From Vulcanimicrobiaceae bacterium (GTDB taxonomy: Bacteria; Vulcanimicrobiota; Vulcanimicrobiia; Vulcanimicrobiales; Vulcanimicrobiaceae), in assembly GCA_046262595.1 (NCBI GenBank), contig JBHEMM010000026.1, forward strand, positions 550-14,918: a DNA stretch of 14,369 bases. The letters run 5' to 3'. A program made the translations under genes and the position numbers. Numbering within the stretch: the first letter of the stretch is position 1; each line of letters opens with the position of its first letter. Positions 1-14,369 of this stretch are shown in pieces. The notes under the pieces were generated by a model that saw nothing but the letters and a program-made list of their open reading frames with translations, made no database searches and was not told the DNA's origin.

Positions 1-372
1 CCCAAGAACGATGGCGGCGCGTTCCTGGTTGCCCCGGGCGGCAACGCGAGCGGCAGCGCAGACGGCGACAACTTGCATTGGATTGAAAACATCTATTCAA
101 GCACCGGCATCAGCGCGTCGACATATTGCAAACCGGATTACTTGGCGCCCCCCGGTTCGACGGCCGACTGCCGGGTGCAGATCGAAGGCACTTCGCAGGC
201 AACGCCGCACGTCGCCGGAGCGGCGGCGCTGATCTTGGCGGTGAAACCGTCGTATACGCCCGCGCAGGTCGCGGCGGCACTGTGCAGCAGCGCCGCGGAT
301 ATCGGCTCGGCGGCACAAGGCTGCGGCCGCCTCGACGTCAATGCTGCGGTAGCCTACGCCTTAGCGCACTAG
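1..372 (+). CDS. S8 (subtilisin-family) serine peptidase, C-terminal part; 5' end lies outside the window
   Basis: Frame 1 is open from base 1 (PKNDGGAFLVAPGG...). It has the subtilase 'VAPG' motif, the catalytic Ser motif GTSQATPHVAGAAALI (Ser codon 193-195) and the typical ending 'TPAQV...GCGRLDVNAAV', with TAG at 370-372. Confidence 0.9.
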   Translation, partial: PKNDGGAFLVAPGGNASGSADGDNLHWIENIYSSTGISASTYCKPDYLAPPGSTADCRVQIEGTSQATPHVAGAAALILAVKPSYTPAQVAAALCSSAADIGSAAQGCGRLDVNAAVAYALAH

Positions 373-397: not shown

Positions 398-1423
398 CTA
401 CGTGCCGTAGCCGATCGAGGCCAGCACGCGCTGCGTATGCACCGCCTCCTCGAATGTGGGAACCGCGCTATGCCCCGTCTCGATCTGCTTGACGAATTCA
501 TCGAGCAGATCGGCGATCAACGGCACGTGCGCATCGACCGAGGCGAGATTCGCGTGCGGTGAGGGTTTGCAATCCAGTTCGTTGGTTTCTTCCTCGTCGA
601 CGGTGAACAGCCGCATATCGAACAGATCCGAGCCGCTCGCGACCGCCGTGCGGTTTTCCGCATGCGAGGCAACCGTAAGGGAATCGACCGCCGTTGTTGC
701 ATCGCAGCTTACGCGGGAGATCAGTCCTTCGCCGTAATCGATCAGCGCAAAGCACCCGTCGTCGACCGTGCTTTTGAAGTCGCCCTGGGCATCGGTGCGT
801 GACGCGTTTGCGGTTCGCAGATACCCGGTGCTGCGCAAGGGCGGCCGGCCGGCGTACCACGTTGCGCTGTCAATCAGGTGCGAGAGCAGTGCGCCGGCCA
901 TGCCGCCGCCGCGCTCCCGGTCAAACCACCAACCGCGCGTGCGCTGCACACCGGGACGCAAGCGTGTGGAAAGCTGCGTAATTTCGATCTCCCGCAGCGG
1001 GTGCAGGTGCCCGTTCGCGATCAATTCTTTGATCGCGTAGCGCTGCGGTGCCCACCGGAATTCATGCATGACGGCCGTTGCGGCCGTTGCGTGCTGCGCC
1101 GCCGCCAGCATGTCTTCCGCTTGCGAAACGTTCAGCGCAAACGGCTTCTCGCAGATGACGTGCTTTCCCGCCGCCAGCGCGGCGAGCACGTCGCGGTGGT
1201 GCGTAAACGGCGGGGCCGCAATCGAGACGACGTCCAGATCGCAGCCCGCGAGCATCTCCTCGCAACTCGAAAACGCGTGCGCTACCCCGCGCTGTTTCGC
1301 CTGCTCCTGCGCGCTGTTCGGCGAGGCGAGCGCGATGACGTCAAAAGCGGGATGCGCTTTAAATGCCGGCAGATGCGAACGCACACCGAAACCCGCGCCC
1401 GTTATGCCCACTTTGTATTTCAC
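398..1423 (-). CDS. Gfo/Idh/MocA-family NAD(P)-dependent oxidoreductase (341 aa)
   Basis: GTG start at 1423 with a GAGGAG Shine-Dalgarno just upstream, overlapping the upstream TGA. N-terminal Rossmann motif KVGITGAGFG, family motif HVICEKPFA, and GGMAGALLSHLID. The ORF-track extension to 1912 overlaps the aminotransferase. Confidence 0.92.
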   Translation of the reverse strand: MKYKVGITGAGFGVRSHLPAFKAHPAFDVIALASPNSAQEQAKQRGVAHAFSSCEEMLAGCDLDVVSIAAPPFTHHRDVLAALAAGKHVICEKPFALNVSQAEDMLAAAQHATAATAVMHEFRWAPQRYAIKELIANGHLHPLREIEITQLSTRLRPGVQRTRGWWFDRERGGGMAGALLSHLIDSATWYAGRPPLRSTGYLRTANASRTDAQGDFKSTVDDGCFALIDYGEGLISRVSCDATTAVDSLTVASHAENRTAVASGSDLFDMRLFTVDEEETNELDCKPSPHANLASVDAHVPLIADLLDEFVKQIETGHSAVPTFEEAVHTQRVLASIGYGT

Positions 1424-2688
1424 AGCAGCTCCTCGATAAGGTCGATTGCGCGAAAAAGTTGTTGTTGTTCGATAACCAGCGGCGGCGTGAGTGAGAGTAC
1501 GTCGCCCTGCGGCCCGGCTTGCAGAAGGATAACACCTTTTCGCAGCGCTTCGTGCACGACGCGCTCGGCGTGCGCCGCGCTGTCCAGTTGTATGCCCCAC
1601 ATGAGGCCGCGACCGCGCACGTCCCGCAGTTTCTTCGTGGTGCGCAGCCGGTCCAACCGCGAACCGAGCACGGCGCCCAAACGCTGCGCGTTTTCCGGCA
1701 GCCGCATGCGGCGCAGTTCGTTGATGTTCGCCAGCGCCGCAGCGCAGCCCATCGGATTTCCGAGATACGTTGAGGTGTGCAGCGCCTCGCCCGCGGAGGC
1801 GGGCCAAGCATCCATGATTTCGGCTCGCGCAATCGCCGCAGAGATCGGAAAGCCGTTCGCCATCGCCTTGCCGATGCACATGATGTCCGGAACGACGTTC
1901 TCGTGCTCGCACGCAAACATCATCCCGGTGCGTCCGAAGCCCGTGTAGATTTCGTCGAAAACGAGCAGCACGCCCGCGTTCGTGCAGAGATCGCGCAACG
2001 CCGGCAAGTAGCCTTTGGGCGGCGCAATGCAGCCGCCGCGCCCTTGCATGGGCTCGATGAAAACCGCCGCGATATCCGTGCGCTGCGCCAGTGCCTTTTC
2101 GATGCTCTCGAGCGTGCCGGCCGGCGGATAGTCGAGCAAAACTGCGTTGGCGCGAAGTGCGCCGGTAAACGGCGCCCCGAACCGCTCGATTCCGGAGATC
2201 GCGAGGGCGCCGAGCGAGAGACCGTGATACGCGTTCCGGTATGCGGCGAAGGCGGTTTTTCCCGTTGCGAGCATCGCGGTCTTCATCGCCGCTTCAACCG
2301 CTTCCGCTCCGGTGGACGCCAAGAACGTCTTTGAAAGATCGCCGGGTGTTATCTCGGCAAGTTTTTGCAGCAGGGCAGTTTTCGTCTCGGTGGGATGCAC
2401 GTCGCCCATGGCGTGCATCAACCGGACGGCTTGATCGTGAATCGCCTCGGCAACGTACGGGTTGCTGTGTCCCGTGTTGGCGACGCCGAACGCCGCGGTC
2501 AGATCGATGTAGCGGTTCCCGTCCACATCGGTGACCGTCGCGCCTTGGCCATTCTCCCAGAAGACGGGGAACTTCTCGCCGACGTACGTGACGTTGCGTG
2601 ACTCGAAGCGCTGCAGCGTGCGCGCCAGCTCGCGCGTGCGCGGACCCGGAACCTCCGTGCGGAGCTGTTCAAACAGATCCTCATTCAC
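1420..2688 (-). CDS. Class-III PLP-dependent aminotransferase (GabT/ArgD fold), substrate unknown
   Basis: Motifs DVDGNRYIDL, STGAEAVEAAMK, AYHG, FIEPMQG, FDEIYTGFGRTG, IGKAMANGFPIS (PLP lysine), STYLGNP and VRGRGLMWG. GTG at 2688 overlaps the upstream TGA; ATG 2706 is an alternative start. Confidence 0.93.
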   Translation of the reverse strand: MNEDLFEQLRTEVPGPRTRELARTLQRFESRNVTYVGEKFPVFWENGQGATVTDVDGNRYIDLTAAFGVANTGHSNPYVAEAIHDQAVRLMHAMGDVHPTETKTALLQKLAEITPGDLSKTFLASTGAEAVEAAMKTAMLATGKTAFAAYRNAYHGLSLGALAISGIERFGAPFTGALRANAVLLDYPPAGTLESIEKALAQRTDIAAVFIEPMQGRGGCIAPPKGYLPALRDLCTNAGVLLVFDEIYTGFGRTGMMFACEHENVVPDIMCIGKAMANGFPISAAIARAEIMDAWPASAGEALHTSTYLGNPMGCAAALANINELRRMRLPENAQRLGAVLGSRLDRLRTTKKLRDVRGRGLMWGIQLDSAAHAERVVHEALRKGVILLQAGPQGDVLSLTPPLVIEQQQLFRAIDLIEELL

Positions 2689-3905
2689 CGGCTTGCATCG
2701 ATCCATCGCACGAAGCCGCTGATTCGCGGCTGACCGCCGTGATGCGCCGTCAGCGGCGGGTCCTGCAGTTCCCCGAAGTGCGCCAGACGCGCCGCGCCCG
2801 ACTGCAGCACCATCTCGACGACGTCCGCGCGTTGGCTCGAAACGGCGAAGCCCTCCAGAGGCAGCGCGTGCGCGCGAAGATATGCGAGCGCGCCGTCGGG
2901 ATGCTCGACGGCGTGCATGCTCAGGGTGCGCGGCAGGAATGCCGGCGGATCCCCGGACGGCGGATCCAGAAGAAGTGCGTGCGCGCCGGGCCGCGCGAGA
3001 AGGTTGCCCTTACCGTTCGCGGCGCGGAACGCGTGCAGGCGGTGATGTTCGAGCACGGCCGCGGCTCTGTGCGGTTCCAACGTACCGGCCGGGAATTCAA
3101 TTGCAGCGCGCTCGATCGCCGCATATAGCAGCTGAGCGAAGCGATCGAAGGCCGGGCGAGACGTATCCTCCGCGAAGAGCACGTGAAGTGAGAGGCAGCC
3201 TTCGCCCTCGTACAAAATGAGGTCACGCGCCGCACCTTCGGCAGCCGCCGTTGCCGAAGGCAGATCGAGAAGGGTCTCCCGCGTGAGATAGCCCGCGCTT
3301 ACGCGCGACCCGAAGCCGGTGAAGCGCGCGCCGGATGTACAAGCCGCGGCAATCTGAGCAAGCGTTCGATCTGTTCCAAAGGCGGTCACGGCATCGAACG
3401 CCTGGAGATCGGGAACATCTGCATCGCGCGACGACCAGGCCTGCGCGCGTGCCGCCTGCGCGAAACGATCGTCTTCGTCGGCGAGCGTTTCGAAAAACGC
3501 CTGGACGAAACTGTCCTCGCGGTCTTTAACCAGCACATCGCACTTGGCGCACAGGGCGAAGATTGCCGGCACGAGCGCGACGCCGATCGTCGTGCGGCTG
3601 GAGATGACGCAGACGGATCCCACCGGCATCGCGCGGTTACGTGTCGCACCGCGGCCGGTGAACCCATCGAGCGCGTCGATCGATCCGAGTTCGGTGCCAA
3701 TCACCGTTTCCAACGCGTCAGGCGTGACGGAAAGAAACAAACGATCCAGCGCATACTCTACGACGGGAACGCTGTATCCCGTTCGCGATGCAATGCGCTC
3801 CAGTACGCGCACGCGGGGCGGAAAATCGCCATCGCTCCAGCGTGCGGCCGCAGCAGCGATTCCGCGCACGATCGCGCGCGCAGGCAACCCTGCAAGGGCG
3901 CTCAC
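2685..3905 (-). CDS. LuxC-like acyl-CoA/acyl-protein reductase (ALDH superfamily)
   Basis: LuxC-like segments VTAFGTDRTL, GFGSRVS, RDLILYEGEGCLSLHVLF (putative catalytic Cys, codon 3195-3197) and C-terminal GAARLAHFGELQDPPLTAHHGG..ISGFVRWI. GTG start at 3905 overlaps the stop of the luxE-like gene. Confidence 0.82.
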   Translation of the reverse strand: MSALAGLPARAIVRGIAAAAARWSDGDFPPRVRVLERIASRTGYSVPVVEYALDRLFLSVTPDALETVIGTELGSIDALDGFTGRGATRNRAMPVGSVCVISSRTTIGVALVPAIFALCAKCDVLVKDREDSFVQAFFETLADEDDRFAQAARAQAWSSRDADVPDLQAFDAVTAFGTDRTLAQIAAACTSGARFTGFGSRVSAGYLTRETLLDLPSATAAAEGAARDLILYEGEGCLSLHVLFAEDTSRPAFDRFAQLLYAAIERAAIEFPAGTLEPHRAAAVLEHHRLHAFRAANGKGNLLARPGAHALLLDPPSGDPPAFLPRTLSMHAVEHPDGALAYLRAHALPLEGFAVSSQRADVVEMVLQSGAARLAHFGELQDPPLTAHHGGQPRISGFVRWIDASR

Positions 3906-4996
3906 TTCAGGCTGAGTAGCTGTTCGGCATCCAAAGAGCAACCGCGCAGATGCGCCCCCTCTTCGCGGCCGATCAAAATGATGCCGCCGTCCGGCGCGGC
4001 AACGCCGAGGTCTTCGGTTTGAACGGCGAGACACGACGAGCGGTTCGCCAGATCGACGTGCGTCAACGATCCGACCGTACCGTCGGGAACATCCTGGCCG
4101 CGCTGCCCGGTGACGCGCGTGCGCAGCCAAGGCGGCGCGCGTTTGACGCGCACTTCGCCGAACGTGACATCGTAATACTGGGTGCATAGCTCGGTCATGC
4201 CGTACTCCGCGACGATGGCTTCCGGCTTCAACACGAACGTCTGCGCGAGCGAGGCATAGAGCTGCTCGCGTTTGACGATGCGCGTGCGTCCCTTAAAGCC
4301 GCCGGTTTCCATGACGCGCGAACCGTCGGGTAAGCGCAGATCGGCGTGCGGCATCGCGCCGAACTCGTCGAGCAACTGCACGAACGCAAAAGCCGTTCCC
4401 GCGACGCAGAGGGGGCGCCCTTCCGCGCGCGCGCGGGCGACGCTTTGCGCAAGCGCCGCCGCTTGCAGCCGATCGCCTTGCAGAAACCACCGCTCGCCGC
4501 CATCACCGTACGTGCCCGCCACTTTTTGCATCATGTATCCCAGCGAGGAGTGCGGGCGCTCCTGCGGATTGGGCACGAGCAGGAGGTAGCGCAGCGGCTG
4601 CTGCGCACCGCCGAGCATCGCGTCATGAAACCCCGCAAGCAGCGACGCGTCGTACAGCGCGGGCGTTTCCAAATAATGTTTACCGCCCATGCCGCGCGTC
4701 GTGCCGCTCGTTTCAAATGTCAGCGCGGCGCGGTTGGGCTCAAACGTTGTCAGCGCGGCCTCTTTGAACGCGCCGCCCGGCGCGGGCGGAATGTCTTGCC
4801 AACACGGCGGCATTGCATCGGGGCGTACGCCAAGTGACGCGCAATACCGCGCGTACGGCGCATTGTAACGCAGCTGATGCGCGAAGACCCGCAAGGCCAG
4901 GCCGCCGAAGTCCGGCACGCAGCGCCGCGCGATGCACTCGAGAATCTCGCTATCGAGCGCCGCCGCCTGCGCCTCGTACGTTTGGTCCGCGGTCAT
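3902..4996 (-). CDS. LuxE-like acyl-protein synthetase (adenylate-forming, LuxE/PaaK-like)
   Basis: Motifs QLRYNAPYARYC..IPPAP..AFK, FETSGTT (P-loop-like), ETGGFKGR, EYGMTEL, DLAN....AVQTEDLG and C-terminal GREEGAHLRGCS, which has the LuxE-type acyl-accepting Cys (codon 3938-3940). ATG at 4996 overlaps the upstream TGA. Confidence 0.88.
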   Translation of the reverse strand: MTADQTYEAQAAALDSEILECIARRCVPDFGGLALRVFAHQLRYNAPYARYCASLGVRPDAMPPCWQDIPPAPGGAFKEAALTTFEPNRAALTFETSGTTRGMGGKHYLETPALYDASLLAGFHDAMLGGAQQPLRYLLLVPNPQERPHSSLGYMMQKVAGTYGDGGERWFLQGDRLQAAALAQSVARARAEGRPLCVAGTAFAFVQLLDEFGAMPHADLRLPDGSRVMETGGFKGRTRIVKREQLYASLAQTFVLKPEAIVAEYGMTELCTQYYDVTFGEVRVKRAPPWLRTRVTGQRGQDVPDGTVGSLTHVDLANRSSCLAVQTEDLGVAAPDGGIILIGREEGAHLRGCSLDAEQLLSLK

Positions 4997-5466
4997 CGCC
5001 GTTTGCTCGTGATCAGTCCGCTGTTGAGGCCGCCGCTCGCCAGGCCGCCGTTGAGGCGCGCGTTCTCGACCTTTAAGCAGCGGTCCACGACGACGTCCAG
5101 ACCCGCCTCGTCTGCGAGATGGATGGCGTCTTCGTTGATAACGCCGTATTGGAACCAGACGCATTTGGCGCCGGACGTAATGGCTTCGCGCACGACAGCG
5201 GCCACTTCGCTGGGTTTACGGAACACGTCCACAATATCGGGCGCGCCGTGTTCCTGCGCGTACGCAGCAAGTGACGGATACGCTTTGATGCCGTCGATCG
5301 CGGCGATCGCCGGATTGATGGGCGTGGTCTGGAAGGGCGTCATCGTGCGCAAATAGCTGAACACCGTGTAGCTCGGCCGCAGGGGATTCGCCGACGCACC
5401 CACCATCGCGATGGTCTTGCTGCGCTGCAGCACGGCTTTGCGCTGACTGACGGAGCGCAGGATCAC
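4993..5466 (-). CDS. CoA-binding protein (YccU-like, CoA_binding_2)
   Basis: Motifs KTIAMVGASANPLRPSY, PINP, DIVDVFRKP, VWFQYGVINE and VVDRCLKVE are typical of this family. GTG start overlaps the metY stop. Confidence 0.92.
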   Translation of the reverse strand: MILRSVSQRKAVLQRSKTIAMVGASANPLRPSYTVFSYLRTMTPFQTTPINPAIAAIDGIKAYPSLAAYAQEHGAPDIVDVFRKPSEVAAVVREAITSGAKCVWFQYGVINEDAIHLADEAGLDVVVDRCLKVENARLNGGLASGGLNSGLITSKRR

Positions 5467-6719
5467 GACGCCGCGGCCGTTTGGGCGAGCGCGCGCTCCA
5501 AAGCATTGCCGAGGTCCCAGATTAAATCGTCCGCGTCTTCCAAACCGACGGATAAACGGATACTCTCGGGCGCGACGCCGGCTTTGCGCATCTCGTCATC
5601 GCTTAGTTGCGAATGGGTCGTCGAGGCGGGATGAATGACCAAGCTCTTCATGTCGCCCACGTTCGCCAAATGACTCCACAGTTCGAGTGAATCGATGAAG
5701 CGGCGTCCGGCGTCACGGCCGCCGCGAATCCCGAACGTGAAGATCGATCCCATTGCCGGAGCTTTAACCCATTCCACTTCGGCACGGCGCTGGAGGAACT
5801 GCACGATGCGCTGCGCGTTCTCAACGTGCGCGCGCATGCGGATCGGAAGCGTTTCAAGGCCGAGCAGCAGCAGCCACGCATCCATCGGCGAGAGTTGCGA
5901 GCCGATATCGCGCAGCACTTCGGCGCGCGCGCGCATCAGAAACGCGTACTCGCCGAACGTTTCGGTGAAAACTTTATCATGATAGCCGGGGCTGGGCTGC
6001 GAGAGCAGCGGAAACCTTCCGTTCTCGAACGGGAACCTTCCGGACTCCACGAGCACGCCGCCGATGACGGCGCCGTGTCCGCTGATGAACTTCGTCGCCG
6101 AATGGACGACGATGTCGGCGCCGTGCTCGATGGGGCGGAAGAGGGCAGGCGATGCGAAAGTGTTATCGATTACGAGCGGGATGCCGGCATCGTGTGCGAT
6201 ACGCGCGAGGCTTTCGACGTCTGCAAGCGCGCCCGACGGATTGCCGATCGTCTCGGCAAAAAGCATCTTCGTATTGGGCCGGATCGCCGCCCGGATCGCG
6301 TCGTGCTGCTCGACCGGAACGAACGCCGTTTCGATGCCCATGCGTTTGAGCGTGATGCCGAACTGCGTGACGGTTCCGCCGTAGACGTTCTGCGAGCTCA
6401 CGATGTGGTCGCCGTTCTGTGCGATCGTAAGGATCGTTCCCAACTGCGCTGCCAGCCCGCTCGAGAACGCCAAGGCGCCGATCCCGCCTTCCAGGCTTGC
6501 CATGCGCTCTTCGAACGCCGAAACGGTCGGGTTGCTGATACGGCTGTAGATGTGGCCGTAGCTGCGCAGCTGGAACAGCTCGGCCGCCTGCTCGGTCGAG
6601 CCGAAAACGAAAGCAGCCGTTTGATGGATCGGGGTAACGCGCGAACCCGTAACCGGATCCGGCGGCGTGCCGGCATGGATGGCGCGGGTGGAAAATCCGA
6701 AAGGATGGTCGTCTTGCAT
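5463..6719 (-). CDS. metY: O-acetylhomoserine sulfhydrylase / aminocarboxypropyltransferase (Cys/Met metabolism PLP enzyme)
   Basis: Motifs FSTRAIHAG, PIHQTAAFVF, IYSRISNPT, YGGT, ETIGNP, IDNTFASP, HSATKFISGHG (PLP Lys), HLANVGDMKSLVIHPASTTHSQL and IRLSVGLE. ATG 6719 is the chosen start; GTG 6731 is an alternative. Confidence 0.9.
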   Translation of the reverse strand: MQDDHPFGFSTRAIHAGTPPDPVTGSRVTPIHQTAAFVFGSTEQAAELFQLRSYGHIYSRISNPTVSAFEERMASLEGGIGALAFSSGLAAQLGTILTIAQNGDHIVSSQNVYGGTVTQFGITLKRMGIETAFVPVEQHDAIRAAIRPNTKMLFAETIGNPSGALADVESLARIAHDAGIPLVIDNTFASPALFRPIEHGADIVVHSATKFISGHGAVIGGVLVESGRFPFENGRFPLLSQPSPGYHDKVFTETFGEYAFLMRARAEVLRDIGSQLSPMDAWLLLLGLETLPIRMRAHVENAQRIVQFLQRRAEVEWVKAPAMGSIFTFGIRGGRDAGRRFIDSLELWSHLANVGDMKSLVIHPASTTHSQLSDDEMRKAGVAPESIRLSVGLEDADDLIWDLGNALERALAQTAAAS

Positions 6720-6787: not shown

Positions 6788-8071
6788 ATGGGCATGACCC
6801 TGACCGAGAAGATCCTCGCGCGCCACGCCGGCCTGAACGCAGTGGAGCCGGGCCAAATCATCAACGCTAAAGTCGATCTCGTGCTGGCGAACGAGCTCTC
6901 CGCCGCCGTTGCAATCGGCGTCATGCGCAACATCAAGGGCGCCGATCGTGTCTTTGACCGTGAAAAGATAGCGCTGGTCGAGGATCACTTCGTGCCTGCC
7001 AAAGACGCGCAGTCGGCAAAAATCGCAAAACTGATGAAAGACTTTGCCATCGAGCAAAACATCAAGCACTTTTTCGACGTCGGCCGCGGCGGAATTGAAC
7101 ACGTCGTGCTGCCCGAGGAAGGCCTTGTCGCGCCGGGCGAACTGATCGTCGGCGGCGACTCGCACACGTGCACGTACGGTGCGTTCGGCTCATTCGCAAC
7201 GGGCATGGGTTCGACCGACATCGCAGCGGCGTTCGTGCTCGGCGAGGTGTGGCTGCGGGTTCCGCCGACCATCAAGATCACCTATAACGGCTCGCTGGGC
7301 GAGATGGTCTTCGCCAAAGACATCATGCTCAAGACCGTCGGAACGCTCGGCATCGACGGCGCGACGTACCGCGCTATCGAATATCACGGCACGACGATCG
7401 ACAACCTTTCAATCACCGGGCGCATCACGATGGCAAACATGGCGATCGAAGCCGGCGCGAAGAACGGCATCTTTCACGCCGATGCAAAGACGATAGCGTT
7501 CGTCAAAGAGCGCACCGACCGGCCGTTCATCGTGGAGCACGCCGATGACGACGCGCTTTACGAACAGCAGATCACCATCGACGTGGGGAACTTGGAACCG
7601 CAAATCGCCTGCCCGCACACCCCCGATAACGTGCATCCGATTTCCGAGGTGACGCGCGAAGAGATCAACGTGGATCAAGTCTTCATCGGATCGTGTACGA
7701 ATGGCTACATCGACGACCTGCGCGTGGTGGCGAAGATACTCGACGGCAAGAAAATCGCGTCGAGCTTGCGCGTCATCGTCAACCCGGGTTCGCAAAAAGT
7801 GTGGATGCAGGCGGCGCAGGAAGGGGTTCTTACGACCCTCGCTGCGGCGGGATGCGTTGTCAATACGCCCGGCTGCGGCGCGTGCTTCGGCGGTCACATG
7901 GGCACGCTAGGAGACGGCGAGCGCTGCATCTCCACCACAAACCGCAATTACGTCGGACGCATGGGCTCGCCCAAGGCGGAAGTCTATCTTGCCTCTCCCG
8001 CCACGTGCGCGGCGTCTGCACTAACCGGCCGCATTACCGACCCGCGCACCGTCGTTGCGGCGCTGGTGTAA
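6788..8071 (+). CDS. leuC: 3-isopropylmalate dehydratase large subunit, short (~420 aa) HacA/DmdA-like aconitase subfamily
   Basis: Motifs MGMTLTEKIL, DHFVP, GIEH, GGDSHTCTYGAFG, NMAIEAGAKNG, FIGSCTNG and PGCGACFG (three [4Fe-4S] Cys), STTNRNY.GRMG and YLASP. AGGAG lies at 6771-6775. The exact substrate cannot be fixed from sequence. Confidence 0.9.
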   Translation: MGMTLTEKILARHAGLNAVEPGQIINAKVDLVLANELSAAVAIGVMRNIKGADRVFDREKIALVEDHFVPAKDAQSAKIAKLMKDFAIEQNIKHFFDVGRGGIEHVVLPEEGLVAPGELIVGGDSHTCTYGAFGSFATGMGSTDIAAAFVLGEVWLRVPPTIKITYNGSLGEMVFAKDIMLKTVGTLGIDGATYRAIEYHGTTIDNLSITGRITMANMAIEAGAKNGIFHADAKTIAFVKERTDRPFIVEHADDDALYEQQITIDVGNLEPQIACPHTPDNVHPISEVTREEINVDQVFIGSCTNGYIDDLRVVAKILDGKKIASSLRVIVNPGSQKVWMQAAQEGVLTTLAAAGCVVNTPGCGACFGGHMGTLGDGERCISTTNRNYVGRMGSPKAEVYLASPATCAASALTGRITDPRTVVAALV

Positions 8072-8072
8072 T

Positions 8073-8585
8073 ATGCGCGGCAAAGCACATAAATACGGCA
8101 AGAACATCGACACCGATGTCATCATCCCGGGAAAATACTGCAACATCGTGGATCAAGCCGAACTCGGCAAACACGCGCTCGAAGGCATCGATCCGGAGTT
8201 CGCCACGCGCATGAGCGCGGGCGACATCATCGTCGCCGATACGAACTTCGGCTGCGGATCCAGCCGTGAAGTGGCGCCGATCGCGATCAAGGGATCGGGA
8301 GCGTCAGCGGTGATTGCGAAAAGCTTCGCACGTATTTTTTACCGCAATGCGCTTAACATCGGTCTGCCGATCTTGGAATCACCCGAAGCGGTGGATGGTA
8401 TCCAAAGCGGCGATGAGATAGAGATTGAGCCGGCGACCGGCGCCATCCGCAATCTCACACGCAACGCGACGTATCAGGCGGCAGCGTTTCCTCCCTTCAT
8501 GCAGTCGCTGATCGAGGCGGGCGGTTTTCAGCCGTACGTCGAGCGGCGTTTAGCCGAACAGACGCGAGGCGAAAACGTCCTTTAG
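8073..8585 (+). CDS. leuD: 3-isopropylmalate dehydratase small subunit (short HacB/DmdB-like type)
   Basis: ATG lies 1 nt after the leuC TAA. Motifs [47 protein letters not shown] and AGG near the C-terminus. Confidence 0.92.
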
Positions 8586-9211
8586 GGGTTCCCGCCAGGA
8601 TTGCCCGACATGCCGCCTAGGCCGCTGCCGCCGGGCGAAATGTTATCGATCCATTTGTACTTCGGACGGTACGCGGCGGTGAAGCCGAGCAAATCGTTTG
8701 ATGTCGTCAGCGTTCCGACCATATCGCTGTTGCCTTCGGCGGCACCGCTGAACCGGAGCGTGTTTCCGTTTGCAAGCGAAACCACGAGCTGCACTTTTTT
8801 CCCGTCATTCGTGCCGGCGAGCGGAAATCGCTTGCCGTTTTCATCCAAATACACGCCGGTGAGCGCCGTGCCGATTTGCGTGATCTTGAAATGCGAGTAC
8901 ACAACGCCGTCGGTTTTCTGAAGCGCGACTTCCCACACTCCCGTGATCCCCACGCGGTTCTCTTCGGTATCCTTCGGCGGCGCGGGCGTCGCTTTCGGTT
9001 TGCCGCCGATGGTTACGCCCGCGGTGCTTCCCGGAGCTTGGGGAAGGACACCGGGCGGTAACACCGGCGTCGGCGCCACTGTCGGTTGATACGTCGCCTG
9101 CGCACTGGGGAGCGGCGGCGCAACGTTTTGCGCGTGTGCCGTGCCGAGCGCGGCAATCGCGCACGCAGCCGCAAGCAAGAATAGGCTCAAGAAAGAAGTC
9201 AGACGTTTCAC
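8582..9211 (-). CDS. Hypothetical secreted protein (signal peptide, Pro-rich linker, small beta-rich domain)
   Basis: GTG start preceded by TAAGGAG. Signal peptide MKRLTSFLSLFLLAAACAIAALGTAHA ends in an AxA site. A Pro-rich linker precedes 'ITGVWEV...LTGVY...PLAGT' beta strands. The stop overlaps the leuD stop (convergent). Confidence 0.78.
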   Translation of the reverse strand: MKRLTSFLSLFLLAAACAIAALGTAHAQNVAPPLPSAQATYQPTVAPTPVLPPGVLPQAPGSTAGVTIGGKPKATPAPPKDTEENRVGITGVWEVALQKTDGVVYSHFKITQIGTALTGVYLDENGKRFPLAGTNDGKKVQLVVSLANGNTLRFSGAAEGNSDMVGTLTTSNDLLGFTAAYRPKYKWIDNISPGGSGLGGMSGNPGGNP

Positions 9212-9221
9212 GATACGCTCC

Positions 9222-9716
9222 TTACGGCAAGGACACGCGGGATTCCGGTGAGGCGCTCGGTTGCGCTGCCGGACTTGCTTCAGGGCGGCGGATTTCGTTG
9301 GGCAGCCGGCGGTGCAGGGTCACGGGCTGCACCGCGGCAGCGAGGGCATGCGCGTCGGCCGTCAGCGGATCGTTCCCGGGACATTCTAAGTCGTCGGACG
9401 ACCAGCCGTGGTAACGCGCGACCGTGGAGCTTCCGAATGATGCGCTCTTCATACATGTTTTCGCTTCGTTTGCCGAGCCGGCGCGCTTGGCGGCGCGCAG
9501 ATCGGCGAACAACCGCGCGACGACATCCCGCGGTGCGCGCGTCATGCCGGCGGCGGCGACCGCTCGTCCGTCGGACCACACCTTGATCGTGTAGCCCGGC
9601 GTGTTCGTCGAGCCGGAGTTTACCAAAATTGCACCATCGGGGCCGCCCGAAGCAAGCGAAACCGCCGCCGCAGCGGCAACGAAAAGGCCTGCGAGAACCG
9701 TTGAGCATGTACGCAT
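9222..9716 (-). CDS. Hypothetical secreted protein with a Cys pair
   Basis: Hydrophobic N-terminus (VLAGLFVAAAAAVSLA) followed by a non-repetitive core NSGSTNTPGYTIKVWSDG...CMKSASFGSST...SDDLECP. Its TAA forms part of the Shine-Dalgarno of the next gene. Confidence 0.72.
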   Translation of the reverse strand: MRTCSTVLAGLFVAAAAAVSLASGGPDGAILVNSGSTNTPGYTIKVWSDGRAVAAAGMTRAPRDVVARLFADLRAAKRAGSANEAKTCMKSASFGSSTVARYHGWSSDDLECPGNDPLTADAHALAAAVQPVTLHRRLPNEIRRPEASPAAQPSASPESRVSLP

Positions 9717-9862
9717 GTCCGGGTAACGCGCCGTTCTTCGTGTTTGTTTCTTCGCTCGCTCTTGACCGAATCGATAAAGTTGCCGTCTGCGGCGAGCATG
9801 ACTTTAGACGCACCCGCGGGAATCGCACAGGCGTAATCTGTTTCGCACGTCAGGGGTTCGTT

Positions 9863-11269
9863 TTGAGAAACCGTCTTATAGTGATGGGCGCCGCCCTTTT
9901 CCTCGCGGCGAGTCTTGCCGCATGCGGGGGCGGTGGCGGCGGAGGCACCGGCGGCGGAGGCGGGGTTGGCGTTATTCCGACGCCCACGCCCACGCCGACA
10001 TCGACACCGACACCCGCTGCAACGCTGAATCCGTATGGCTGCGTCGGCTCGACGCCGTACGCAACGGTGGCGCGCCGGCCGATGATCGCGCATCCCATTG
10101 CTGCGGGCGATTCGTTCACGTACAGCGGCACCATTTCCGATACGCGCACGCAAAGCGCGCCGTGTGCGCAGCCCACGGCTACGTCGGCCGCTACGGTTTC
10201 GGTATCGGTCGCGGCAAGCGCGACGACCATGCCTGATGCTTCTGCGGGCAGCGACTTCAAGTCGACGGAAGCGGATGCGTTTCCAACGCTGACGCAAACC
10301 ACGATCACCGACCTCTCCGTCAAGAGCACCGCCTCGCAATTTCTGCTATACGCCGAGAAGAACTCCGACACCAACGGCAATTCGGCGGATATGATTTACA
10401 CCGTCCCGCAGCTTCTGGATCGCAATCCTGAGGCATCCGGTTCATGGGGCGCTTCGGGGAGTTCGTACTTCAATAACCCGGCCGGCACGTTTACCGAGAA
10501 CCTCGCGGACGGGACGGCCGTGAGCCGCACGATTGCCGCCGACGGTTCGTACATCGATACGGAAACGTTTCCCGGCGGCGCGGGAACCGCGACAATCACC
10601 GTAAACGGCGCGGTCAACGCGCGCAGCCTCGACGGTTCGGGCTCGTACGGGCTCGCAGGCGCCACTTTCAGCTACGCAGCGCCGGCGGCGGGCAGCATTA
10701 CGCTGACGATTACCCAGCCGGGATCGACGAAGACGCGCACGTTTCCGGCATGGTTCTCCTCGCCCGGCTCCACGTCGTATATCTCGGATGGGTTCGCTGA
10801 TAGCGGTCCCTCGCTCATTGATGCCGGCTGCACGGTCGATCCCGCCGCGGGCGCCACGGGTGAGAAGGTCATCGAGACGCACTCCGTGCTGGACCCCGTG
10901 CTCGGATATCAAGACACGCGCGTGACGACCTCATACAACGTGAGCGGCTTCGGCGCCGTTTGCGTGAAGATCGACGACACGCTCAAGTCGTATTACGACT
11001 ACACCAACGATACGACGAAGATCGATTACCAATCGCAAAACGGGTCGCCCAATTCGGTCGACGATTTTGTCGAGTTCTTGAGCATGACGTCCACGTCGTC
11101 CTATCCGGCCGTCCGGACGGCATCCGCGCGGACACAAGGGGTCTCACCGCTAAGCGTTGCCGCACACATTTCTGCACTCGAATTGCGCCGGGAAGTGCAG
11201 CGTGCGCAAAGAGTGCACGCTCTTCACGATATCTTGCTCCGCAATGCGGCCGAAGGAGGCGCGCGATGA
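9863..11269 (+). CDS. Hypothetical Ser/Thr-rich lipoprotein (~468 aa)
   Basis: TTG start at 9863 after AGGGG gives a basic n-region, h-region and lipobox LAAC, followed by a Gly run, a PT-repeat linker and a Thr/Ser/Gly-rich beta-like body. The TGA overlaps the next ATG. ATG 9884 is an alternative start. Confidence 0.8.
   Translation: MRNRLIVMGAALFLAASLAACGGGGGGGTGGGGGVGVIPTPTPTPTSTPTPAATLNPYGCVGSTPYATVARRPMIAHPIAAGDSFTYSGTISDTRTQSAPCAQPTATSAATVSVSVAASATTMPDASAGSDFKSTEADAFPTLTQTTITDLSVKSTASQFLLYAEKNSDTNGNSADMIYTVPQLLDRNPEASGSWGASGSSYFNNPAGTFTENLADGTAVSRTIAADGSYIDTETFPGGAGTATITVNGAVNARSLDGSGSYGLAGATFSYAAPAAGSITLTITQPGSTKTRTFPAWFSSPGSTSYISDGFADSGPSLIDAGCTVDPAAGATGEKVIETHSVLDPVLGYQDTRVTTSYNVSGFGAVCVKIDDTLKSYYDYTNDTTKIDYQSQNGSPNSVDDFVEFLSMTSTSSYPAVRTASARTQGVSPLSVAAHISALELRREVQRAQRVHALHDILLRNAAEGGAR
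9977..10015 (+). repeat. Coding Pro-Thr low-complexity linker (PTPTPTPTSTPTP)
   Basis: Degenerate ccg/ccc-acg/aca hexamer repeats in frame within the lipoprotein. Confidence 0.75.
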
Positions 11270-13413
11270 AAGTCTCAGCACTGAGTGCGCTCGCGTGCTC
11301 GCTTGCGATCGTTGCGCTCGCCGCTTGCGGCGGTCATAGCTCCCCGATGCTTCCGGCATCCAATCCGGGCGGTTCGAACCTATCCGGAACGGCTTCGTTC
11401 GACTGGGGCAAAGAAGCGATGAGCGGAGCGGCCTATGCGGGTCCTGCAAACGCCGGGCACATGCAAGTCTCCGTGCTGGTCAATCAACAGAACGCGCAAG
11501 GTTTGCTGCAATATGCGCAGCAAGCCGCCGATCCCGCTTCCGCGTCGTACCGCCGCTTTCTGACGCCGGACGAAATTGCAGCGCGCTTCGGCGCAACGCT
11601 GCAAGACTATCGCAAAACCGCAAACTATTTCGTGGCTAACGGGCTCACCGTCGGCGGTTGGCGTCAGCGGCTCTCGCTTACCGTAGCGGGCCCGCAACAG
11701 GCGATGGAAAAAGCCTTCGGTACGAAGTTCGGGCTGTATACCAAAGACGGCGCGGAATTTGTCGCGCCGGTAACGACGCCTCACTTCGCCGCTGCGCTCC
11801 CGGTGACAGCCGTCTCGAATTTGGTGGCGGAGCGCACGATGCACACGTACGCCGTCCCCGTGCCTCCGCGCGCGAACGCAAACGACACGCTGGGCTATTC
11901 GCCGCAGCAGCTGCGCACGGCGTTCGATTACAGCGGCGCATACACCGCCGGTTTCAGCGGCAACGGAATAACGATTGGAATCATCGGCACAGGGCCGATC
12001 AACGTGACGCGCAGCGGCCCGGGTGCGTTGTGTAACGACGCCGACCTCGCGGCGCTCAAGGCCTTGTACGCAACGAGTTCCGCGCCGGTGTGCGAACGTG
12101 ACGTAACGACGAGCGGTGTCGCCGCCGGTCTGGCCGCTTCCGGTATTCCTACGGCCAGTCCGACGTGGAGCCCCGTACCGAACGCAACGCCCTCGCCGAA
12201 TCCCGGCGTTTCACCGCCGTCCTTGTTCCCGTTCTCCGGCAGCTTCCAGACGCCGCCGCCTGTTTCGCAGAACACGTGCACCGGCGCTCTCCCTGCCTGT
12301 AACCCGGAAGATCTCGAAGCGCAACTCGACGTCGAACAGGCCGCAATGCTTGCGACCGGCGCAACGGTAACCTTCTATCTGGCCTACAACGCCGCCGATT
12401 GCGCCGTCATCTTCCCCGATTCGTGCACGACGAGCGGCAGCAATGCCGCGACGGCCTATCTTGGAATCACGGAAGGCGACGCGGAGATCCAACAAGCGAT
12501 CGCCGACAATACGGCGGACGTCATCTCGATCAGCTACGGCGGCGGAGAGCCGCAGCAAGCCGGCAGCGGCCTCGGCTCGGCATTTGATTCCCGCGGCCGC
12601 GGCTATGCGCCCGTTGAGTTCGCGGAACTCGCTGCTGAAGGCATAGCGGTGTTCGTCTCGTCGGGCGACAGCGGCTCAGCCGAGTGTCTGGGAGGCACCA
12701 ATGGCTACTTGCCGCAGCCGTGCGTGAGTTATCCCTCAGGCGATGTCAACGTAACGTCGGTCGGCGGCGTCAATGCGCCGATCAACGAGTTCGGACAATT
12801 GAACGCAAACCTCACGGCGTGGGGCGTCACGAACGGCGGCTTAAGTCAAACGGACCACAGCTCAGCGAGCGGATCGGGAGGCGGCACATCGACGATCTTT
12901 TCCGCGCCGCCGTGGCAGTACTCCGCCATCGGCGCGACGATGCGCGAACAGCCCGACGTCTCTCTTGTCGGCGATACGCTGACCGGCGTTACGGTGTATA
13001 CCAACGGCACGTGCAGCAACTGCGGCGGATCCCCCGGAGCAACGGCGGTCGGCGGTACCAGCGTTGCAACCCCGGAGATGGCGGCAATGTGGGCGCTGGT
13101 TTTAGATGCCTGCAATCAGTCGGCTTCATGCAAATCGGGCGGTTCGGGAGCGAAGCCCTACCGTCTGGGTAATGCGGCGCCGTACTTTTACAGCATCTAC
13201 AAAGGCAGCAGCGCGGCAGGCACGGGTCACATCGGATTCTCGCCGTTCCTGAGCTACGTGAACACGTTCTACGACGTCGTCTACGGCAACAACGCCATGC
13301 CGGGAACGGCTACGCCGGTCCCCGGCGTAAACGCCGGCCCAGGCTATGATGAAGTCACCGGGCTCGGTGTCCCGTTTGCCCGGCACCTCGTCAAAGCAGT
13401 TACGAACCGCTAA
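11266..13413 (+). CDS. S53 (sedolisin/kumamolisin-like) serine-carboxyl peptidase, lipoprotein with pro-domain (715 aa)
   Basis: ATG follows GAAGGAGG and leads into lipobox LAAC. Pro-kumamolisin segment DPASASYRRFLTPDEIAARFGA. Catalytic EAQLD (Glu 12316-18, Asp 12328-30), oxyanion SSGDSG, PDVS, nucleophile GGTSVATP (Ser 13060-62) and Ca-site GYDEVTGLGVP. Confidence 0.93.
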   Translation: MKVSALSALACSLAIVALAACGGHSSPMLPASNPGGSNLSGTASFDWGKEAMSGAAYAGPANAGHMQVSVLVNQQNAQGLLQYAQQAADPASASYRRFLTPDEIAARFGATLQDYRKTANYFVANGLTVGGWRQRLSLTVAGPQQAMEKAFGTKFGLYTKDGAEFVAPVTTPHFAAALPVTAVSNLVAERTMHTYAVPVPPRANANDTLGYSPQQLRTAFDYSGAYTAGFSGNGITIGIIGTGPINVTRSGPGALCNDADLAALKALYATSSAPVCERDVTTSGVAAGLAASGIPTASPTWSPVPNATPSPNPGVSPPSLFPFSGSFQTPPPVSQNTCTGALPACNPEDLEAQLDVEQAAMLATGATVTFYLAYNAADCAVIFPDSCTTSGSNAATAYLGITEGDAEIQQAIADNTADVISISYGGGEPQQAGSGLGSAFDSRGRGYAPVEFAELAAEGIAVFVSSGDSGSAECLGGTNGYLPQPCVSYPSGDVNVTSVGGVNAPINEFGQLNANLTAWGVTNGGLSQTDHSSASGSGGGTSTIFSAPPWQYSAIGATMREQPDVSLVGDTLTGVTVYTNGTCSNCGGSPGATAVGGTSVATPEMAAMWALVLDACNQSASCKSGGSGAKPYRLGNAAPYFYSIYKGSSAAGTGHIGFSPFLSYVNTFYDVVYGNNAMPGTATPVPGVNAGPGYDEVTGLGVPFARHLVKAVTNR

Positions 13414-13469: not shown

Positions 13470-13736
13470 GTGAAAGAGAAGATTCATCCGAAATGGTATC
13501 CCGAGGCACGGGTCCACTGTGCTTGCGGGTCGACGTTTACCACCGGCTCGACGGTCCCGCAGATCGCGGTCGAGATTTGTTCTGCCTGCCATCCGCTTTT
13601 TACGGGGCAGCAGAAGTTCATCGACACGGCCGGCCGCGTCGATAAGTTCCGCCAGCGTGAAGAGATCGCCAAGCAGAAACAAGAAGAGGCTGCCGCCCGC
13701 AAGGCCAAGCGCGAGGCCGCCAAAGTCGAGGCCTAG
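13470..13736 (+). CDS. rpmE: 50S ribosomal protein L31, Zn-binding type A
   Basis: MKEKIHPKW...VHCACG...[27 protein letters not shown], with all four Zn-ligand Cys present and a Lys/Ala/Glu-rich tail. Confidence 0.97.
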
Positions 13737-14046: not shown

Positions 14047-14369
14047 ATGGCAAACACGTTTTACGGCCGCCTGGAAACGATCGCGAAACGCTTCGATGAA
14101 ATCGAAGCGGAGCTCGCGCATCCCAGCGGCGCGTTCGATCAGGCCAAGTACACCGCGCTGCTCAAGGAACGCGCCTCGATCGAAGAGTCGACTGCCGCGT
14201 ACCGCGAGTACGAGAAAACGCTTGAGGCGATCGCTGCCAACGAGGCGCTTTTAGCCGATCGCAGCGATCCCGAACTGCACGATTTGGCCGAAGAAGAAGC
14301 GCAAGCGCTGCGGCGGCGGCGCATCGAGCTCGATCAGCATCCGGTAGTAGCGGCGCACCTCTCGATAAC
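14047..14369 (+). CDS. prfA: Peptide chain release factor 1, N-terminal part (runs off the window; absent from the ORF track)
   Basis: Manual translation gives MANTFYGRLETIAKRFDEIEAELAHPSGAFDQAKYTALLKERASIEESTAAYREYEKTLEAIAANEALLADRSDPELHDLAEEEAQALRRRRIELDQ, matching the RF1 N-domain pattern (RF.E.E..L..P....DQ..Y..L.KE...YREY...DPEL..LAEEE). It lies in the usual position downstream of rpmE. Confidence 0.88.
   Translation, partial: MANTFYGRLETIAKRFDEIEAELAHPSGAFDQAKYTALLKERASIEESTAAYREYEKTLEAIAANEALLADRSDPELHDLAEEEAQALRRRRIELDQHPVVAAHLSI

Follow-up and report, generated by a model that had tools for sequence, protein, structure and literature searches.

A luxE-luxC-aminotransferase module outside any lux operon: a proposed nitrile-free route to the queuosine precursor preQ1

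In a 14,369-nt stretch of DNA from a Vulcanimicrobiaceae bacterium (contig JBHEMM010000026.1 of assembly GCA_046262595.1), hereafter the window, four open and consecutive genes on the minus strand encode a LuxE-like protein, a LuxC-like protein, a class III aminotransferase (AT) and an oxidoreductase of the Gfo/Idh/MocA family (Gfo), in that order, with a 4-nt overlap between the stop of one gene and the start of the next (Table 1). The reading frames bear out this arrangement, which the initial annotation had described, and all four products score above the cut-offs of the expected Pfam families; the gene starts are those that we chose, and an alternative in-frame ATG at 2706 would give AT a 22-nt overlap. 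We show that luxE, luxC and AT form a real and widespread three-enzyme module, LuxCE-like and omega-transaminase-like in its parts and yet no lux operon, and we consider it highly probable, from sequence comparisons, that this trio replaces QueC and QueF non-homologously, taking 7-carboxy-7-deazaguanine (CDG) through the 7-formyl aldehyde to preQ1.

To place the LuxE-like and LuxC-like proteins, we compared them with the fatty acid reductase of Photobacterium phosphoreum (7XC6). Cys353 of the LuxE-like protein (codon 3938-3940) aligns with the Cys motif of P. phosphoreum LuxE; the LuxE subfamily profile matches 7XC6_E (E 2e-29) and the LuxC profile 7XC6_A (E 2e-42), each with its catalytic Cys in register, Cys237 (codon 3195-3197) in the case of LuxC. 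Both residues, first noted as intact from the window alone, are invariant in two 12-sequence alignments. Membership of a lux operon was nevertheless rejected: the families and the Cys residues match, but the scores against the NCBIfam equivalogs are far too low (LuxE, 47.5 bits against a cut-off of 550; LuxC, 27.2 bits against 750) and luxAB is absent. The luxA, luxB, luxD and luxG families have no match among the 13 window proteins scanned with Pfam, in agreement with the initial annotation, and the luciferase family PF00296 has none anywhere in the source genome (89.7% complete), so that a luciferase partner for LuxE and LuxC was also rejected; for luxD, the 13 window proteins are the extent of the search, no genome-wide luxD search having been made. 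The predicted structure of the LuxE-like protein (mean predicted local distance difference test, pLDDT, 86.7) matches ANL adenylating enzymes, including the aryl-acid ligases PaaK and ClxA. Directly before its adenylation YG motif stands Glu264, a position that is Glu in 81 of 89 LuxE subfamily sequences (the other eight escaped the search pattern) and Asn, Leu or Gly in eight unrelated LuxE-like proteins. As a weak hint, Glu264, presumably in the acid pocket by comparison with PaaK (a placement for which a literature search gave no source), could recognise CDG through its guanine face. The LuxE-like protein would accordingly be an acid adenylase/acyl-protein synthetase, proposed here as the CDG-activating enzyme, and the LuxC-like protein an NAD(P)H-dependent thioester reductase, the proposed maker of 7-formyl-7-deazaguanine.

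The aminotransferase represents a distinct class III subfamily. Its best PDB match is a putrescine aminotransferase (E 3e-73), and it has in common with the class III transaminases for putrescine, gamma-aminobutyrate (GABA) and acetylornithine the fold and the pyridoxal phosphate (PLP) Lys, here Lys274 (codon 1867-1869), whose motif is kept in 114/114 distinct subfamily sequences. It differs from these enzymes in having a conserved Arg, Tyr/Phe and Ser where they have Glu, Gln and Arg; in the alignment with putrescine/GABA transaminases Arg217 replaces Glu, Tyr248 replaces Gln and Ser399 replaces Arg, at positions that presumably bind glutamate in those enzymes (a role for which a literature search found no source). 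Arg217 is conserved in 113 of the 114 distinct subfamily sequences from the analysed loci, and the active-site fingerprint is also present in most of the top-ranking representatives. AT scores below the cut-off of each of the 25 best NCBIfam equivalogs listed, and it fails both the NCBIfam cut-offs and the canonical residues of ArgD, GabT, PatA, LysJ, BioA and HemL. Since the source genome holds five further class III aminotransferase paralogues, a housekeeping ArgD, GabT or HemL identity was rejected on these paralogues and on the family scores. We propose that AT is the preQ1-forming transaminase. A partial AT of the subfamily lies on a 3.4-kb IMG/VR contig (L315:228-980), the sole match in a viral collection, and may be host DNA.

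Within the class of the source genome the trio is close to universal. The LuxE-like gene is present in 81/81 sampled genomes, AT in 79/80 (in the exception, G127, the locus holds a partial gene) and LuxC, by a single-protein search, in 75/80; the copies of the sister order are divergent, and there a gene of the expected length separates luxE from AT in 6/6 loci. The class tallies for LuxE, QueC, QueF and QueD include one unpublished genome (G128); leaving it out lowers the denominators to 80 and does not alter the pattern. No more than 450 bp separates luxC from AT in any of the 74 genomes with a match to both, which indicates linkage beyond chance, and luxE lies no more than 1.7 kb from luxC in 46 of 75 genomes, being elsewhere in 29, mostly from one genus. 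Weak LuxE matches in other classes of the phylum were rejected as orthologues, as they belong to systems of LuxE and LuxC-PaaK fusions without AT, and proteins of 830-900 amino acids considered as LuxC-AT fusions were LuxC-PaaK fusions as well. Such systems (L060, L062-L067) often include a second PaaK-like gene, a HATPase-GNAT protein and a major facilitator superfamily (MFS) gene; one frame (L064:4563-8396) encodes a LuxE-LuxC-PaaK triple fusion of 1277 amino acids.

The coupling of luxE and luxC to AT, proposed from the window, recurs in several phyla. Searching with 41 sequences of the subfamily, we obtained more than 594 AT relatives and analysed the best 80 loci, which are mostly from Verrucomicrobiota, with others from Armatimonadota, genomes labelled Omnitrophota or Planctomycetia, Gemmatimonadota and one from Eremiobacterota, some of these labels looking wrong. 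A QueE-like gene lies directly upstream of AT, ending no more than 270 bp away, in 54 of the 80; the four such neighbours scanned all have TIGR04349 as best match, two of them above its cut-off. luxE was found in eight of these loci and luxC in six. The order queE-AT-luxE-luxC occurs in L123, L258 and L270, queE-AT-luxE in the truncated L118 and queG-AT-luxE-luxC in L277, and queD directly follows luxC in 10 of 63 loci (one per genome), many of the loci ending too early to reveal such a neighbour. Approached from LuxE, 80 metagenome loci contained luxC in 59 cases and AT in 31. Single frames join the partners in more than one way: ten long AT relatives scanned included one LuxC-AT fusion (P0123) and two AT-LuxE fusions (P0151, P0196), and LuxC and AT share a frame in G077 and G125, although frameshifts could explain these too. 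Because LuxE, LuxC and AT co-occur across several phyla and are found in fused form, acid-to-aldehyde-to-amine chemistry is the best inference for the module. LuxE and LuxC also share one reading frame in L270:7893-10451 (after queE and AT) and in L291:7950-10151. In the Limisphaerales-type loci (L076-L155) rsmA/ksgA and a NUDIX gene usually come after queE-AT, which is a setting of RNA modification, and in L202 an S-adenosylmethionine (SAM) riboswitch (10253-10370), probably unrelated to the module, lies just past luxC-queD and before the next gene.

To relate the trio to the queuosine genes, we compared 55 genomes carrying AT outside the class with 25 controls. The carriers come from 50 of the 80 AT loci, chosen for spread, and from five genomes of a Verrucomicrobiota-wide draw (6 AT carriers in 201 genomes, with at most eight candidates scored per genome); the controls are hand-picked AT-negative Verrucomicrobiota, and genome completeness is not stated for either set. 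The LuxE subfamily was found in 53 carriers, QueF in none and canonical QueC in none, whereas the controls had QueF in 20, canonical QueC in 19, QueE in 16 and LuxE in one. This sole LuxE-positive control (G163) has two contig ends that bear queE-AT and AT-luxE-luxC-queD, respectively, and is without QueC and QueF; four controls lack all of these genes, and in another QueF is the only one present. In eight controls queC is a near neighbour of queE (about 1 kb away at most), in the position that AT occupies in carriers. QueD and LuxC were each found in 5/5 carriers tested. Fisher's exact P values for carriers against controls are near 1e-13, which overstates the case because related genomes are not independent.

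The source genome itself appears equipped to make and use preQ1. FolE2 is present, Tgt, QueA and QueG score above cut-off, QueD exceeds the TIGR03367 cut-off and has a QueE-like gene adjacent, and all four GUN tRNAs (Asp, Asn, His, Tyr) are encoded. QueC, QueF and FolE type I had no match in this genome, and a tblastn search with canonical QueC was also empty. The determinants of the bacterial, preQ1-using enzyme (PMC3660597) are present in its Tgt as Asp156, Cys158 and Val233. Across the class QueF occurs in 0/81 genomes and QueC in 2/81, both weak, but QueD in 81/81, with a QueE-like gene beside it in 20/20 sampled regions, which argues against queuosine from salvage only. The 69 genomes from the other classes of the phylum contain QueC in 30, QueD in 35 and a strong QueF in 12. 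In the source genome queD-queE (L225, G000:C15:34254-36636) runs directly on into a gene resembling that of futalosine hydrolase, whose 117.5 bits fall short of the cut-off of 124.7, and into a further gene that resembles mqnD but has no NCBIfam match at 1e-12.

With queE, queD and queG as neighbours and with QueF and canonical QueC absent in carriers, the likely substrate and product of the module can be named. The conversion of COOH to CH2NH2 is the net change brought about by QueC and QueF together, and hence the chemistry of the trio fits exactly. From the genes observed, their intact catalytic residues, their linkage and their presence or absence among genomes, we infer the substrate, every reaction, the cofactor and the amino donor of the following scheme. 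LuxE would adenylate CDG and acylate its own C-terminal Cys; the acyl group would pass to LuxC and be reduced with NAD(P)H to 7-formyl-7-deazaguanine, which AT would transaminate to preQ1; Tgt would then put preQ1 into tRNA, and QueA and QueG would complete queuosine. The acid-aldehyde-amine logic of the initial annotation is supported, with something other than a fatty acid as the probable substrate; the link to queuosine synthesis was absent from that annotation. We also regard it as probable that this constitutes a second, nitrile-free preQ1 route in one entire class of Eremiobacterota and in parts of Verrucomicrobiota, Armatimonadota, Omnitrophota-like lineages and Gemmatimonadota.

Several observations weigh against a role in preQ1 synthesis. 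There are no que genes in the window, and no que gene adjoins the module in the class loci fetched, the nearest lying about 13-22 kb away, in the sister order. The QueE-like protein of the source genome is below all five QueE cut-offs, with QueE families as its best matches, and the presence of Tgt and QueA was examined in the source genome alone. Gaps in the pathway occur without the module, since 7 of the 35 QueD-positive genomes of the other classes have no QueC. The 54 queE-AT loci are mostly from one order, Limisphaerales, and so represent few independent events, in about five phylum-level lineages. Seen from LuxE, the 80 metagenome loci show queE in two, queG in one and queD in none. Among the 55 carriers, LuxE was not found in two, and QueE (TIGR04349, E<=1e-25) was found in 37 with no match in 18, of which five were retested by a looser search, all five then giving a QueE-like gene. 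Nine carriers have a gene that weakly matches the QueC family (E 1e-27 to 1e-35); the six such proteins scanned score 75-95 bits against the TIGR00364 cut-off of 150, and these genes may be divergent preQ0 synthases. No preQ1 riboswitch reached the gathering score in 144 kb from 13 sources, a set outside which the queD-queE leader of the source genome falls; such an element would support the pathway, which does not depend on it. Divergent QueC-family proteins with an altered PP-loop, below the QueC cut-off, also occur beside phosphate-regulation genes in Omnitrophota-like loci (L191-L194), and G151 has a related protein, likewise below the QueC cut-off.

The trio, together with Gfo, might instead make an amine from a fatty or other non-purine acid and have nothing to do with queuosine, which we find improbable. 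LuxE and LuxC of luminous bacteria do use fatty acids (PMC6279958, in its accessible part), TabE clusters with LuxC and partners the transaminase TabA (available text of bioRxiv 10.1101/2025.08.11.669332), and the window offers metY and a CoA-binding gene as neighbours instead of que genes. Such a pathway would, however, leave unexplained both the adjacency to queE, queD and queG in different lineages and the distribution of QueF, with 0/55 in carriers against 20/25 in controls. Moreover, the single-copy, near-universal presence in the class resembles that of a housekeeping function. No genes for an acyl carrier protein (ACP) or bipyrrole synthesis were found in the window or among the annotated recurring neighbours, genes below 50 amino acids not having been called, and no LuxD, polyketide synthase (PKS) or non-ribosomal peptide synthetase (NRPS) genes were recognised among those neighbours. 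The source genome also has a separate cluster (L227, G000:C12:13695-17415) of a class III aminotransferase, an SRPBCC protein and a protein that resembles both the N-terminal half of prodigiosin PigE and acyl-ACP reductase, hence a split PigE-like reductase/transaminase pair, which is a candidate for the fatty-amine chemistry.

A different product from the same substrate seems decidedly improbable to us: the trio would use CDG and yield another 7-deazaguanine, be it the base with a 7-formyl or a 7-hydroxymethyl group or an N-substituted amine that goes into DNA, tRNA or a metabolite, queuosine then coming from salvage or from the weak QueC-family paralogues. The unusual AT site (Arg217, Tyr248, Ser399) perhaps does not belong to an ordinary transaminase, and the accessible text of bioRxiv 10.64898/2026.04.15.718813 describes both the direct use of CDG in QueC-less pathways, such as that to tubercidin, and other functions for QueC-family proteins, of which 9/55 carriers have weak members. 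Against this, the AT PLP Lys motif is intact in 114/114 sequences, the source genome keeps a preQ1-type Tgt, QueA and QueG, which need preQ1, and the strict absence of QueF from carriers (0/55) and class genomes (0/81) is what one expects if the trio makes QueF redundant. That housekeeping genes merely share a transcript here, with LuxE and LuxC tailoring lipids or glycans as in flagellin glycosylation islands, where luciferase-free luxE/luxC occur (PMC7874193, as far as accessible), is barely credible: the distance of luxE from luxC-AT in 29/75 class genomes and the loose linkage of metY, the CoA-binding gene and Gfo would fit it, but it is largely refuted by the cross-phylum linkage, with LuxE in 53/55 AT carriers of other phyla, and the 74/74 adjacency of LuxC and AT, the fusions in two orders of arrangement and the lack of an AT alongside the other LuxE/LuxC-PaaK system of the phylum also speak against it.

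The initial annotation had grouped Gfo with the trio, as an enzyme that could oxidise or reduce the substrate, the aldehyde or an imine; its distribution does not support a place among the core enzymes. Gfo was found in 70/80 class genomes and lies within 250 bp of AT in 60 of the 69 that have both, but it adjoins the module only in the source family and in one sister genome, and 7 of the 71 family genomes retaining the module gave no match to it. In other phyla a distant homologue lies near AT in 4/80 genome loci, never directly coupled, and Gfo lies near luxE in 4/80 metagenome loci; its place after AT is taken in the sister order by an MFS transporter. Although co-translated here, Gfo is probably a passenger or has an accessory part, perhaps the recycling of a hydroxymethyl shunt product. 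Beyond the four genes of the initial annotation, the 4-nt coupling extends upstream of luxE to the CoA_binding_2 gene and then to metY (Table 1). In one genus (g4) the CoA_binding_2 gene is oriented opposite to luxE, and the loci of the sister order lack it; the linkage of metY is equally variable. Given this variability, Gfo, metY and the CoA-binding gene were rejected as core parts of the module. In several family genomes a DUF1565 protein of 390-420 amino acids is encoded beside luxC on the opposite strand, between luxE and luxC in L034 and L055-L057 and upstream of luxC in L049, L052 and L054. A promoter and terminator scan gave nothing that scored above shuffled sequence.

Table 1. Genes of the module and its surroundings, in window coordinates
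Feature	Position	Strand	Description
luxE-like gene	3902-4996	-	364 aa; PF04443 61.9 bits (cut-off 24.9)
luxC-like gene	2685-3905	-	406 aa; PF05893 110.6 bits
Class III aminotransferase (AT) gene	1420-2688	-	422 aa; PF00202 (Aminotran_3) 356 bits
Gfo/Idh/MocA oxidoreductase gene	398-1423	-	341 aa; PF01408 89 bits
CoA_binding_2 gene	4993-5466	-	157 aa; PF13380 117.9 bits
metY	5463-6719	-	418 aa; MetY-type O-acetylhomoserine sulfhydrylase; TIGR01326 550.8 (cut-off 495.1)
End of a subtilase	1-372	+	
Dehydratase pair	6788-8585	+	LeuC/LeuD- or HacA/HacB-type; divergent from metY
Two probably secreted proteins	8582-9716	-	no Pfam match; one recurs in 21 loci
Probable lipoprotein, then protease	9788-13413	+	lipoprotein without family match; protease kumamolisin-like S53/S8
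Small protein	13470-13736		resembles ribosomal L31; no NCBIfam match at 1e-10
Start of prfA	14047-14367		

Queuosine synthesis is taught as a single route through QueC and QueF. These enzymes take CDG through preQ0 to preQ1 (PMC13740343, PMC13602947), and in the accessible parts of these two papers and of bioRxiv 10.64898/2026.04.15.718813 theirs is the sole route given from CDG to preQ1. The trio would share with it the substrate and product, the ATP activation and the NAD(P)H reduction, and AT takes the place of queC after queE; it has no homology to QueC and QueF, its proposed intermediate is an aldehyde rather than an amide and a nitrile, with no preQ0, and its nitrogen would come from a PLP amino donor, that of the QueC route coming from ammonia. 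The closest known machinery for the first two steps is the LuxC-LuxE fatty acid reductase, in which LuxE adenylates the acid, acylates its C-terminal Cys and transfers the acyl group to LuxC, which reduces it with NADPH to the aldehyde (PMC6279958). The P. phosphoreum enzymes are a homologous adenylase and a reductase of aldehyde dehydrogenase (ALDH) fold, and it is the match of both Cys residues that suggests a carrier-free thioester relay in the trio, which differs in being without luxAB and luxD, in having AT as partner, in its linkage to que genes and in a substrate that is probably heteroaromatic.

The reduction of a thioester to an aldehyde followed by omega-transamination has been described for TabE/TabA (tambjamine BE-18591) and TamA/TamH (tambjamine YP1), with TabE in one sequence cluster with LuxC, in the available text of bioRxiv 10.1101/2025.08.11.669332. 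The general chemistry put forward by the initial annotation is not new, since the pairing of a LuxC-related reductase with an omega-transaminase is characterised. The tambjamine enzymes act on an ACP-bound C12 chain in secondary metabolism and have no LuxE-type self-acylating enzyme; the setting of the trio is tRNA modification, with no ACP recognised. The terminal reductase of PKS/NRPS systems is a short-chain dehydrogenase/reductase (SDR)-type domain on the assembly line, unrelated to LuxC. With an aminotransferase, it also turns a thioester into an aldehyde and then an amine in coelimycin-type polyketide alkaloids (PMC5365063, in its accessible part). A literature search, with subscription papers mostly beyond its reach, gave no description linking a luxE-luxC-AT module to queuosine, and the main text, as far as accessible, of a 2026 survey of QueE neighbourhoods (bioRxiv 10.64898/2026.04.15.718813) mentions neither LuxE, acyl-CoA nor preQ1, although its supplements may list such clusters.

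If the proposed route is correct, it would be the first housekeeping role, and the first on a substrate other than a fatty acid, for a LuxCE-type reductase, acting here as a carrier-free heteroaryl acid reductase. Three families that are widespread but mis-annotated would gain a function, the origin of the lux reductase would have to be considered in this light, and a carrier-free reductase with its transaminase would become available for heteroaromatic acids. Finally, it would change which bacteria, including abundant soil lineages, are counted as producers of queuosine rather than as salvagers.

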